Source of the DNA: Candidatus Rokuibacteriota bacterium
GTDB lineage: Bacteria; Methylomirabilota; Methylomirabilia; Rokubacteriales; CSP1-6
DNA: 64,000 bases
Assembly: GCA_040902305.1 (NCBI GenBank)
Contig: JBBDXN010000145.1
Location: 3,734 to 67,733 of the forward strand
Direction of reading: 5' to 3'
Shown: piece by piece, positions 9,188 to 61,359 of the stretch
Layout: every line of letters begins with the position of its first letter
Position numbering within the stretch: the first letter of the stretch is position 1
Program-made: the position numbers and the translations under genes
Notes under the pieces: model-generated
The model's database searches: none
What the model saw: the letters and a program-made list of their open reading frames with translations, nothing else
Told to the model about the DNA's origin: nothing

Positions 9188-11157
9188 TACTTGACCTTGG
9201 CGCCCGACGGCACGTCCTTGTCGACCGTGAGCAGCGACACCGTGCCGTCGTGCTCGGCGGCGAGCACCATCCCGTTCGATTCCACGCCCATCAAGGTGGC
9301 GGGCCGCAGATTGGCGACGATGACCACCTTCCGGCCGACCATGTCGCCGGGCTGGTAGTGCTCGGCCACCCCCGCCACCAGTGTGCGCGTCTCCTCCCCC
9401 ACCCGGATCGTGAGCTTGAGCAGCTTCCTGGATTTCGCGACTGCTTCGGCGGCCAGCACCTCCGCCACCCGCAGCTCCACCTTCTGGAAGTCGGCGATCG
9501 GGATCTTGCCGGCGGCCCCCTCACCCTGCCCTCTCCCCCGGGGGGGGAGGGTGGTCGGAGACTTCCCCTCTCCCCTCGTCTCTCTCTCCTTCGAGGCGCT
9601 CGACTCCCTCTTCCCTTTGGGGAGAGGGCCGGGGTGAGGGGCCTTCGTGTCGATCCGCGGAAACAGCCCGGAGATCTTGCTCACCCGCGGCACCGACGTG
9701 AGCCGTCCCACGACGGCGCCCTCGAGCGTGGGCGCCGCGCTCTGTCCAATCGCCTCCCGGATCTTCCGCGCCGCATCCGGCAGGAAGGGATCGAGCACGA
9801 TGCCCAGGAAGCCAAGCGAGTCTGCCAGTGTGCACAGCACCCGCTCGAGGCGCGGCCGCTTGCCGGGGTCCTTGGCGAGCGCCCACGGCGCGCTCGCGTC
9901 CACGTAGCGATTGACGCTGCCGATGAAGGACCAGATGCCGGCCAGCGCCTTCTGGAATGCGAACTCCGGCATGGCCTGCTCGACCGCGGCGCGCGCCGCG
10001 ACCGCGGCGGCCGCGATCTCGCGGTCCGCGGGCTCGGCCGGCGCGGTCACCTGCGCGACGGGGCCGGACGCGGCGATCAAGGTGGTGGCCCGGCTCGCGA
10101 GATTGCCGAGGTCGTTGGCCAGATCGGCGTTGAGCCGATCCACCAGCGCCTCCTCGCTGAAGCTGGCGTCGAGCCCGAAGCTCATCTCGCGGAGGAGAAA
10201 GTAGCGGAAGGCGTCGTGGCCGTACTTGTCGGTGAGCTGCAAGGCCTCCACCACGTTGCCGATGGACTTGGACATCTTGCTGCCGCCGAGGGACCAGTAG
10301 CCGTGGACGTGGAGCCCCTGGTAGAGCGGGATGCCCGCCGCCTTCAGCATGGTCGGCCAGTAGACCCCGTGCGGCTTCAGGATGTCCTTGGCGATCAGGT
10401 GCTCGACGTGCTCCCAGAGCCCGCGCGTCTTCTCGCCGCCGTCCGTCACCGCCGAGTAGTAGTTGAGCAGCGCGTCGAACCAGACGTAGGTCACGTACTT
10501 GTCGTCGAAGGGCAGCGGGATGCCCCACTCGAGGCGCGAGGTGGGCCGGCTGATCGACAGGTCTTGCAGGGGCTCGCGGAGGAAGCCCAGCACCTCGTTG
10601 CGGTACCGGTCCGGCTGGATGAACGCCGGGTGGTCCTCGAGGTGCTTGATCAGCCAGTCCTGGTACTTCGACATCTTGAAGAAGTAGTTCTTCTCCTTGA
10701 TGAAGGTGAGCGCGATCTGGTGATCGGGACACTTGCCGTCCACGATCTCCTTCTCGGTGTAGAAGCGCTCGCAGCCGTAGCAGTACCAGCCCCCGTACTC
10801 GCCGAAGTAGATCTCGCCCGCGTCGTACAGGCGCTGCAGGATGCCCTGCACCACCGCCTTGTGCCGCGGCTCGGTGGTGCGGATGAAGTCGTCGTTGGTG
10901 ATGCCCAGCCGTTGCCACGTCTCCCGGAAGATCGCCGCGATCTCGTCCGCGTAGGCCTGGGGGGACTTCCCGGCCTGGGCCGCCACCTGGGCGATCCGCT
11001 CCCCGTGCTCGTCGGTGCCGGTGAGGAAGTAGACGCGGTCGCCGGCCAGCCGGTGGTAGCGGCACATCGCGTCGGCCATGATGGTGGTGCACGCGTGCCC
11101 GAGGTGCGGGCGCGCGTTGACGTAGTAGATCGGGGTCGTGAGGTAGAAGGTGCTCAT
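9187..11157 (-). CDS. metG: methionine--tRNA ligase with C-terminal Trbp111/EMAP-like tRNA-binding domain
   Basis: ATG 11157 in track ORF 9187..11790: MSTFYLTTPIYYVNARPHLGH (HIGH), ...GSKMSKSIGN (KMSKS), C-terminal ...ADFQKVELRVAEVLAAE...VVIVANLRPATLMGVESNGMVLAA. Confidence 0.95.
   Translation of the reverse strand: MSTFYLTTPIYYVNARPHLGHACTTIMADAMCRYHRLAGDRVYFLTGTDEHGERIAQVAAQAGKSPQAYADEIAAIFRETWQRLGITNDDFIRTTEPRHKAVVQGILQRLYDAGEIYFGEYGGWYCYGCERFYTEKEIVDGKCPDHQIALTFIKEKNYFFKMSKYQDWLIKHLEDHPAFIQPDRYRNEVLGFLREPLQDLSISRPTSRLEWGIPLPFDDKYVTYVWFDALLNYYSAVTDGGEKTRGLWEHVEHLIAKDILKPHGVYWPTMLKAAGIPLYQGLHVHGYWSLGGSKMSKSIGNVVEALQLTDKYGHDAFRYFLLREMSFGLDASFSEEALVDRLNADLANDLGNLASRATTLIAASGPVAQVTAPAEPADREIAAAAVAARAAVEQAMPEFAFQKALAGIWSFIGSVNRYVDASAPWALAKDPGKRPRLERVLCTLADSLGFLGIVLDPFLPDAARKIREAIGQSAAPTLEGAVVGRLTSVPRVSKISGLFPRIDTKAPHPGPLPKGKRESSASKERETRGEGKSPTTLPPRGRGQGEGAAGKIPIADFQKVELRVAEVLAAEAVAKSRKLLKLTIRVGEETRTLVAGVAEHYQPGDMVGRKVVIVANLRPATLMGVESNGMVLAAEHDGTVSLLTVDKDVPSGAKVK
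9516..9641. repeat. 126-bp palindromic repeat element embedded in-frame in the metG linker
   Basis: Terminal inverted repeats CCCCTCACCCTGCCCTCTCCCC (9516-9538) and GGGGAGAGGGCCGGGGTGAGGGG (9619-9641). The same 22-mer occurs at 56882 and 61318, with a variant at 16740. Confidence 0.75.
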
Positions 11158-16739: not shown

Positions 16740-16792
16740 CCCTCACCCCGACCCACTCCCTCGCCGAGGGAGAGGGGGTCAGGGTGAGGGGG
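16740..16792. repeat. palindromic repeat (variant of the CCCTCACCC...CCCTCTCCC family) in a convergent intergenic region
   Basis: CCCTCACCCCGACCCACTCCCTC-GCCG-AGGGAGAGGGGGTCAGGGTGAGGGGG, between stops 16705 (+) and 16819 (-). Could act as a bidirectional terminator. Confidence 0.7.
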
Positions 16793-54623: not shown

Positions 54624-55597
54624 GGGGTCAGGTCTTACATTCCGACATTTTCGATGGCGTGATGTGCGTCCGCTTCAGCCAGGGCACGGCTCACCGTGAT
54701 GTAGTGGCGGCCCAAGAAGTCTCCGACCTCTCTCATGGTGTATCCGTGGTCTCGAACGGCCACGACGGCACGGGCATTCCGGTCGGCCCGGGAGGTCACG
54801 CCCGCAAAGACCTCTCCGAGCGGTGGCCTCGAGGCGAACCGTTGAGCGCGCGGAAACTCCGCGCACTGCATCGCCTCGCGGCACTGGTCAGCGAGACCCT
54901 CGCTCATCACCGGCTTTGACCTGAATCGGTCCAGGGAGGACTCGGGCTCTCCGATGCCCGCCTCCACGAACGACGTGTAGCGCTTCACACCCTCGCCACG
55001 AGTCCTCGCTCCAGCGAGGGCCCGCACCCAGTCCACCGTCAAGAATCCAGGCACGACCGCTCCGCCGGCGGTAGCGCGGAAGCTGCTCCATCTCCAATCG
55101 GCTGGATGCGCGACGAGACCGGCTCGCACCGGATTGAGCACGATGTAGCGGCACACCTCGCGCAGGTAGGCCTCGCCATCCACGAGCTGGGCGCCGAACC
55201 GCCCTTGCAGGAGATGGCCGCATCGCTCGTGCCGGCGATTGAAGCGCTGCGTGTACACACCGTTGAGCTGTCGCATCGTGGTAGAAAGGTTCGCTTCGGG
55301 CGTTTGGAGCAACACGTGATAGTGATTGCCCATGAGGCAGTAGGCGTGACAGACCACGCGATAGCGGGCGACAGTGGCTGCGAGCACGACGAGAAAGCGA
55401 GCGCGGTCGTCGTCGTCTTCAAAGATCGGGCGTCGGTCATTCCCACGCGCGGTGACGTGGTAGATCCCGCCCGGAAACTGGAGGCGGAGCGGTCGGGCCA
55501 TGCGCCCACGCTACCGCTCCGACCTCCACGCGCTCAAGTGTGACGGTTAGGACACACCCGGGAACCGAGAAAATGTCGGGATGTAAGACCTGACCCC
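54624..55597. mobile_element. RAYT-type Y1 transposase unit bounded by 29-bp inverted repeats
   Basis: IR-L GGGGTCAGGTCTTACATTCCGACATTTTC (54624-54652). The reverse complement of IR-R (55569-55597) is GGGGTCAGGTCTTACATCCCGACATTTTC (28/29). The unit sits exactly between the typA stop (54619) and the stop of the VOC gene (55597). Confidence 0.7.
54635..55501 (-). CDS. REP-associated tyrosine transposase-like protein (IS200/IS605 Y1 HUH domain + C-terminal DnaA-type HTH)
   Basis: Track ORF of 288 aa: ...GGIYHVTARGN...GNHYHVLLQTP (HUH)...CRYIVLNPVRAGL (catalytic Tyr)...; C-terminal ...RDHGYTMREVGDFLGRHYITVSRAL. Confidence 0.85.
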   Translation of the reverse strand: MARPLRLQFPGGIYHVTARGNDRRPIFEDDDDRARFLVVLAATVARYRVVCHAYCLMGNHYHVLLQTPEANLSTTMRQLNGVYTQRFNRRHERCGHLLQGRFGAQLVDGEAYLREVCRYIVLNPVRAGLVAHPADWRWSSFRATAGGAVVPGFLTVDWVRALAGARTRGEGVKRYTSFVEAGIGEPESSLDRFRSKPVMSEGLADQCREAMQCAEFPRAQRFASRPPLGEVFAGVTSRADRNARAVVAVRDHGYTMREVGDFLGRHYITVSRALAEADAHHAIENVGM

Positions 55598-56866: not shown

Positions 56867-56928
56867 CCCCTCACCCTCCAGCCCCTCACCCTGCCCTCTC
56901 CCCAAAGGGAGAGGGGTTTGGGGGGTGG
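56867..56928. repeat. palindromic repeat copy (CCCCTCACCC half-unit + full 22-mer + hairpin)
   Basis: CCCCTCACCCTCCAG-CCCCTCACCCTGCCCTCTCCCC-AAA-GGGAGAGGGGTTTGGGGGGTGG, between the hypothetical gene start (56833) and the helicase stop (56931). Confidence 0.7.
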
Positions 56929-61317: not shown

Positions 61318-61359
61318 CCCCTCACCCTGCCCTCTCCCCGACGGGAAGAGGGTGAAGAG
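61318..61359. repeat. palindromic repeat copy between the rsmI start and the clpX stop
   Basis: CCCCTCACCCTGCCCTCTCCCC-GAC-GGGAAGAGGGTGAAGAG. The same 22-mer occurs at 9516 and 56882. Confidence 0.7.

Follow-up and report, generated by a model that had tools for sequence, protein, structure and literature searches.

The window analysed here is a stretch of 64,000 nucleotides (nt) from contig JBBDXN010000145.1 of a Candidatus Rokuibacteriota bacterium. It contains metG, the gene for methionyl-tRNA synthetase (MetRS), and within metG lies a palindromic repeat element that is assigned below to the BoxC family of interspersed repeats. The host genome (G000), that of a soil bacterium, comprises 4.65 Mb in 169 contigs at 70% GC, and shares 82–91% nucleotide identity with contigs named Rokubacteria or Methylomirabilota. 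In this 92%-complete assembly metG is the sole MetRS gene found, the next-best match being another class I synthetase at 29% identity. Profile matches to PF09334, PF19303 and PF01588 describe a class I enzyme whose catalytic and anticodon-binding domains end at about residue 475 and which carries a C-terminal tRNA-binding domain. Known structures align accordingly, with the Thermus MetRS core (PDB 1a8h/3vu8) spanning residues 3–486 and Trbp111 (PDB 1pyb) residues 552–655. Because the folds recognised by Pfam and PDB end at about residue 486 and resume at about residue 552, the element sits in the gap between domains. A look-up of the exact 656-residue protein returned no independent contig.

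The element is an inverted pair. Its left arm, CCCCTCACCCTGCCCTCTCCCC (22 nt, 9517–9538), is matched by a right arm, GGGGAGAGGGCCGGGGTGAGGGG (23 nt, 9619–9641), which is the reverse complement of the left save for an inner loop (CCG as opposed to CA) and is hence one base longer; nested inside 9517–9641 are inner hairpins of C-blocks and G-blocks. The predicted RNA fold of the region has an energy of −93 kcal/mol (z = −4.35). The peptide joining the two domains is 45 amino acids (aa) long (residues 506–550, nt 9508–9642) and nearly all of it is encoded by the element, the metG sense strand specifying ...PPRGRGQGEG from the left unit and APHPGPLPKGK from the right. The initial annotation, made from the sequence alone, had already described a palindromic repeat lying in frame in a permissive linker of an essential gene, with 45 residues joining a class I core to a C-terminal Trbp111/EMAP-like domain. 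The exact 22-mer arm, the inverted repeats, the open frame, the Pfam and PDB matches, the position between folded domains and the presence of a single MetRS gene all bear this out. Its bounds for the right arm also hold; its left arm began one C too early, at 9516, and the element measures 125 nt (9517–9641) rather than 126 bp. Coordinates of these and other features are collected in Table 1.

Table 1. Features of the window (window coordinates) and coding copies of the repeat elsewhere in the host genome (contig:position)
Feature	Position	Strand	Basis
metG, methionyl-tRNA synthetase, 656 aa	9190..11157	minus	open reading frame and start codon; Pfam; PDB
C-terminal Trbp111/EMAP-type tRNA-binding domain, residues 562–654	9196..9474	minus	PF01588 E = 3.5e-26; 1pyb Trbp111
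Palindromic BoxC/TMECO pair, 125 nt arm to arm, three inner blocks; MetRS residues ~507–549	9517..9641	.	22-mer arm, inverted repeats, RNA fold, E. coli alignment
Left triplex-motif unit CCCTCCCCC-CCC-GGGGAGAGGG-CA-GGGTGAGGG; second loop 2 nt	9517..9550	minus	regular-expression match at 9518; translation
Right triplex-motif unit CCCTCTTCCC-TTT-GGGGAGAGGG-CCG-GGGTGAGGGG; TMECO type B (CCG loop), one mismatch in first block	9606..9641	plus	sequence; tail regular expression; E. coli identity
Extra inner segment, 42 nt / 14 codons, within ...SASKERETRGEGKSPT...; bounds alignment-dependent	9558..9599	.	alignment of G000, G014, G013 and E. coli elements
Diverged palindromic copy of BoxC family	16740..16792	.	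sequence
RAYT-type Y1 transposase gene, 288 aa, PF01797 plus DnaA-C-like tail	gene 54635–55501; with repeats 54624–55597		genome's only PF01797 gene
Intergenic single triplex-motif unit, same family as metG element	56882..56917	.	exact 22-mer; motif match
Intergenic single unit of BoxC family, in ~60-nt spacer separating two minus-strand genes	61318..61357	.	exact 22-mer; motif match
Ten coding copies, own genome (G000)	C9:10066–10215, C10:24630, C40:147916, C67:8773, C106:30697–30863, C115:5048–5130, C128:22867, C134:26834, C1:9318, C108:12611		

The arm belongs to an abundant repeat. Two further exact copies of the 22-mer lie in the window, at 56882 and 61318 (expectation from 100 shuffles, 0.00 copies), together with a diverged palindrome at 16740, as first annotated. 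Genome-wide there are 180 exact copies and 266 with up to three mismatches, none being found in reversed controls; at one mismatch or fewer, 114 are forward and 127 reverse, showing no strand bias. Merged matches give 238 elements, 42 of them full inverted pairs (47–242 nt) and the remainder single or half units. A full element consists of outer arms CCCCTCACCCTG...CAGGGTGAGGGG around one to six small hairpins, CCCTCTCCCC-N3-5-GGGGAGAGGG, with variable spacers between them, and the metG element has the same build as the 42 full genomic pairs, with three inner blocks. An element was scored as lying in a coding sequence when an open frame ran across it and both flanks had coding-type GC content at third codon positions. 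By this test 13 of the 238 elements (5.5%) are coding, as against 68% of 4000 random sites, which is a roughly twelve-fold depletion from genes. Neither of the two exact window copies outside metG passes.

BoxC repeats have been described since the 1990s and are without known function. To our knowledge, no enzyme that mobilises them has been reported. The repeat is described as the triplex motif TMECO by Holder et al. (2015, PMC4666352), who cite earlier work on BoxC/PIT (potential intrastrand triplex) by Bachellier et al. and Hoyne/Maher and give the consensus CCCTCNCCC-N3-6-GGGNGAGGG-N3-GGGNGAGGG, with a TTA loop in type A and a CCG loop in type B. The motif was found in more than 260 genomes, with no tie to mobility genes and with raised local variability, and the 23 copies of E. 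coli MG1655 were reported to be "always located intergenically" (PMC4666352).

Several observations establish, at the level of sequence, that the metG repeat belongs to this already described BoxC / PIT / TMECO family. First, the right unit (9606–9640) fits the TMECO consensus with one mismatch in block 1, and the left unit (9518–9550, minus strand) fits save for a second loop of 2 nt. Second, the intergenic copy between wcaA and wzc in E. coli is an 88-nt inverted pair whose right arm equals that of metG at 23/23 bases, and the whole copy matches the metG element of a congener at 72 of 88 positions, the differences falling in loops and spacer. Third, the pattern occurs throughout the host genome, with 30 strict matches and 165 more whose second loop is 2 nt long, mostly CA; none occurs in the reversed control. 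Fourth, the host copies are interspersed, multi-copy, mainly intergenic and unbiased as to strand, and their palindromic pairs show both raised local variability and loss of inner parts. The family element also matches 5404 of 5426 complete E. coli genomes, at a median of 22 places per genome. Neither an Rfam scan of 9400–9750, in which nothing came near any family threshold, nor a full-text literature search with the arm sequences and peptides, which returned no paper, added to this; within the literature on TMECO, PIT and BoxC, Holder et al. (2015) was the only relevant report, and no account of copies inside genes was encountered.

The host repeats thus share with those of E. coli the three-block motif, the inverted-pair ("palindromic TM") form with an identical right arm, a multi-copy and mostly intergenic distribution, the absence of a mobility gene nearby and local sequence instability. 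They differ in four respects. About 5% of the copies here are coding, one of them in frame in an essential gene, whereas the 23 copies of K-12 are always intergenic; the dominant variant has a second loop of 2 nt (CA) and not 3 nt; copies are some ten times more numerous; and the elements often contain several inner hairpin units. The exact 22-mer is widespread, and a scan of species-representative genomes found it in Planctomycetota, Acidobacteriota, Alpha-, Beta- and Deltaproteobacteria, Verrucomicrobiota, Chloroflexota, Omnitrophota and others. Three metagenomic bins, L047 and L082 (labelled Candidatus Limnocylindria) and L061 (labelled Candidatus Acidoferrum), share 88–95% nucleotide identity with the host genome over kilobases, and their organism labels look doubtful.

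Forty relatives were compared, using both the MetRS protein and the 22-mer as queries. The repeat family is present in 20/20 congeners at 8–240 copies each. Linkers of metG were read in 19 congeners, and 17 of these have the element, or what is clearly a remnant of it (pattern APHPGPLP.GERE...GRGQGEG), at the same site, between ...LFPR(I/V)DTK and GKIPI..., the linkers of G016 and G017 being too decayed for assignment. The state of these copies varies: complete two-hairpin elements of 80–83 nt are present in G014, G020 and G009; G013 has the full two-hairpin form, though its metG reads in several frames; G004 shows a 15-nt outer-block expansion; G019, G002, G005 and G008 are examples of decayed copies; and a left or right half is left in G007, G015, G010 and G018. 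The right arm is kept within one mismatch in eight congeners, six of which (L002, L005, L012, L015, L025 and L026) have the exact CCG form, with the remaining two one base off at the CCG spot (L003, GAGCCGGGG; L010, GGGTCGGGG). Within the host genome the CCG form is a minority, with 8 strict TMECO matches out of about 195 units, and its retention in six of eight right arms speaks for a single ancestral insertion.

In other genera of the family and order, the metG linker is about 20–30 aa long, rich in Ala and Pro, and unrelated. One of these outgroup genera holds 51 copies of the repeat, and in another all eight genomes have none. The linker is therefore lineage-specific at the level of the whole genus, and among the relatives examined the genomes free of the repeat carry a linker that is not homologous to it. 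In the shortest congeneric forms the element supplies 27 of 28 linker residues, which indicates that the ancestral linker was replaced rather than extended. By sequence comparison the insertion appears to be ancestral to the genus, with the 42-nt inner unit as the only part specific to the host. The idea that the element fused two separate genes at metG was rejected; the outgroup proteins are already fused, with a different linker.

The repeat also leaves its mark on assemblies. In three congeners contigs end inside the metG element (G001:C68, G003:C297 and G011:C177), the repeat breaking short-read assembly within an essential gene. G007 (L011), G012 (L152) and G013 (L025) are assemblies of few contigs, apparently from long reads, in which the metG frame shifts within or beside the element and in G/C runs. 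These frame changes are more likely homopolymer errors than true pseudogenes, and repeats of the BoxC type may act as frameshift traps for annotation.

A region-restricted search of a large protein collection, which returned MetRS of the same lineage only and is silent on independent insertions in other phyla, yielded 25 MetRS clusters from JGI, ENA and NCBI data. All carry a linker of the element type and, where named, derive from metagenome-assembled genomes of the Methylomirabilota type. Their linkers come in 15 distinct lengths between 25 and 58 aa, every one in frame, and differ through gain of inner units, arrays of GEGxK outer blocks and deletions; outside the linker the proteins are 86–90% identical, and the downstream tRNA-binding domain is 80–89% identical among the congeners. 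The 42-nt segment of the host is private to its assembly, being absent from all 25 metagenomic linkers and from every other sequence examined. L005 (G004) and protein P0008 carry an amplified outer block, each 15-nt step adding CCCCTCACC and 6 nt, which in MetRS yields the peptide arrays GEGLKGEGLK or GEGSKGEGSKGEGSK; several intergenic copies of the family are flanked by these same blocks with a 15-nt period.

The coding capacity of the repeat is compatible with such a position. A canonical BoxC pair has two of its three frames open on each strand, the third meeting a TGA in the outer G-rich arm, and 82% of the residues encoded by the element in metG are Pro, Gly, Ser, Thr or charged. Predicted tryptic fragments of the linker would include those from ESSASK, ERETR and GEGKSPTTLPPR, with GERESGTLSPQGR as the commoner form. 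To judge from this sequence, the metG copy is probably translated as a flexible, disordered tether between the MetRS core and the tRNA-binding domain.

We therefore propose, with a probability of roughly 0.85, that a BoxC pair entered the metG linker in the ancestor of the genus, replaced that linker, was read through as a tether and has since varied in frame. An inverted BoxC/PIT/TMECO pair would have arrived between the two domains in the common ancestor of this Rokubacteria genus, and its open frames, encoding Pro, Gly, Ser and charged residues, would have allowed the copy to be read through as a disordered tether. The original Ala/Pro-rich linker would then have been lost, leaving the repeat itself as the linker. 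Local instability of the palindrome could account for the deletions, half-copies, gains of inner units and 15-nt expansions of the outer block, and selection on the downstream domain would let pass in-frame variants only. The site would tolerate the element because the length and flexibility of the linker alone matter there, and the host genome would hold a private version with three blocks.

Several points weigh against this account. First, both arms are perfect in G000, G014 and G013, yet four-fold sites of metG average 67% identity among congeners; such perfection fits poorly with one old, freely drifting insertion and suggests gene conversion, re-insertion or renewal, or a constraint at the DNA level. 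Second, L026, a divergent congener, uses another frame for the right arm. Third, none of the arm-to-arm lengths (125, 83, 80 and 110 nt) is divisible by three, which leaves the boundaries of the insertion uncertain, and the empty ancestral site is not reconstructible because the old linker is gone. Finally, the translation and the private 42-nt unit are read from the assembly and from comparison, and the disorder of the linker is likewise deduced rather than taken from structure models: a single-sequence model of MetRS (mean pLDDT, a per-residue confidence score, of 37) and one built from 19 close homologues (41) are both of low confidence overall and give no measure of linker disorder.

The first of these points is what would be expected if the linker were a hot spot, with insertions arising independently or anew in different species, or with copies elsewhere in the genome overwriting it by gene conversion, in place of one drifting insertion. 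Inner units that vary in number and sequence, the different frame of L026 and the presence of the BoxC family in other linkers of the host genome are in keeping with this. We nonetheless regard it as unlikely: every congener with a readable element has it in the same place beside ...DTK and in the same orientation, the minority CCG form is exact in six of the eight retained right arms, and the copies grade through half and decayed states, as descent predicts. It is less likely still that the palindrome is kept for a role as nucleic acid, whether as an mRNA hairpin pausing ribosomes between domains or as a DNA structure tuning expression, with the peptide as a by-product. The strong predicted fold and arms conserved above the level of synonymous sites in some species would suit such a role, but in many congeners the gene is intact although one arm, or the greater part of the palindrome, is missing, and tests of TMECO repeats in E. 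coli in vivo found no promoter, terminator or polymerase-blocking activity (PMC4666352).

A misjoining of a repeat copy into metG during assembly is highly improbable. The genome is a short-read metagenome-assembled genome, the 42-nt extra unit occurs only in this assembly, and contigs of three congeners end within the element; however, 17 of 19 other assemblies of the genus have the element at this very site, as do the 25 protein clusters from three data sources, the frame is open across it, and 125 nt is shorter than typical reads plus unique flanks. Finally, although Pro/Gly richness is common in linkers, the idea that the linker is native low-complexity sequence, similar to the repeat through chance or convergence, can be dismissed: its arms agree with those of the repeat at 22/22 and 23/23 bases, it has a palindromic symmetry at the DNA level that is not a product of protein selection, and the linkers of the outgroups are unrelated.

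With a single ancestral insertion as the preferred reading, the question arises of what kind of repeat was inserted. The initial annotation had called it similar to repetitive extragenic palindromic (REP) sequences or to MITEs (miniature transposable elements with inverted repeats), and here the recognition of an interspersed palindromic family stands and the identity as REP or MITE does not. Like bacterial MITEs (Correia, ERIC and Nezha), the BoxC elements are small, have terminal inverted repeats and are occasionally fused in frame to host genes. In contrast to MITEs, they have neither target-site duplication nor a conserved target, and an insertion sequence that shares their ends and could be their parent was not found. 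Of the 42 full copies, 24 have flanks without any identity and 15 have flanks alike at one base; a consistent duplication is absent from all of them, as is a conserved target sequence. MITE status was rejected on the absence of both a target-site duplication and a matching transposase.

REP and REPIN sequences resemble the BoxC family in being short, GC-rich, interspersed palindromes that often form inverted doublets at gene ends, but the BoxC family is not associated with the single RAYT gene of the host. That gene lies in the window and is bracketed by 29-bp inverted repeats, GGGGTCAGGTCTTACATTCCGACATTTTC, of which the genome has 95 copies, often in doublets 35–235 nt apart. RAYT and GGGGTCAGGTCTTACATTCCGACATTTTC form a REPIN-RAYT system of their own, with no relation to the BoxC family, and RAYT was rejected as the mobiliser of BoxC, having a 95-copy repeat of its own.

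The metG copy is not the only one within a gene of the host. Ten further hosts of coding copies were checked by Pfam and all (10/10) are real genes, with the copy mostly between domains: an MFS transporter (in its central loop), an acyl-CoA dehydrogenase, an FGGY kinase, a MaoC double hot-dog protein, an ABC-F protein, a CoxM-type flavoprotein, two integrases, LigD (at the junction of ligase and primase-polymerase) and a hydantoinase A-B. The coding copies use at least four frames or peptides (PLTLPSP, APHPALSP, GRGQGEG and GEGRVRG). In the hydantoinase, of 1293 aa, the copy lies exactly at the A-B junction, which raises the question of two genes welded together by a copy.

The closest functional parallel is the Rickettsia palindromic elements (RPE), which, as summarised in PMC10969869, are selfish palindromes inserted in frame in housekeeping genes (Ogata et al. 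2000, 2002); the likeness is one of function, with no relation in sequence to be expected. In both cases multi-copy palindromes lie in frame in unrelated genes, housekeeping genes included, and are read through where the fold tolerates them, and metG and the 10 further genes have Pfam domains on either side of the in-frame copy, as RPE hosts would. The differences are equally plain. Nearly half of RPE copies are in genes, compared with 5.5% (13/238) for BoxC here; RPE encode a conserved peptide, whereas BoxC uses several frames and its peptide drifts freely; and RPE are confined to one genus, whereas BoxC spans many phyla. The host family has neither the large share of copies in genes nor the one conserved peptide that mark RPE.

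Much more tentatively, and we think it rather doubtful as a generalisation, BoxC repeats might be a cross-phylum source of disordered linkers that are absorbed at domain boundaries and whose instability generates in-frame length variants. In metG, a tether of 25–58 aa would then tune the reach of the tRNA-binding domain, and elsewhere the repeats might weld neighbouring genes, as in hydantoinase A-B.

The metG case is a clear but not unprecedented instance of repeat DNA within an essential protein. For annotators, it implies that Pro/Gly-rich "linkers" in GC-rich metagenome-assembled genomes may in reality be repeats, at which assemblies break and frameshift errors gather. For the repeat family, a sequence called strictly intergenic in E. 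coli is here part of an essential enzyme across a genus, with the native linker displaced, and the metG element acts as a hot spot where length changes in frame; some dozen further host genes show the like at domain boundaries. The family thereby offers a testable example, outside Rickettsia, of selfish or structural repeats supplying and remodelling protein linkers.

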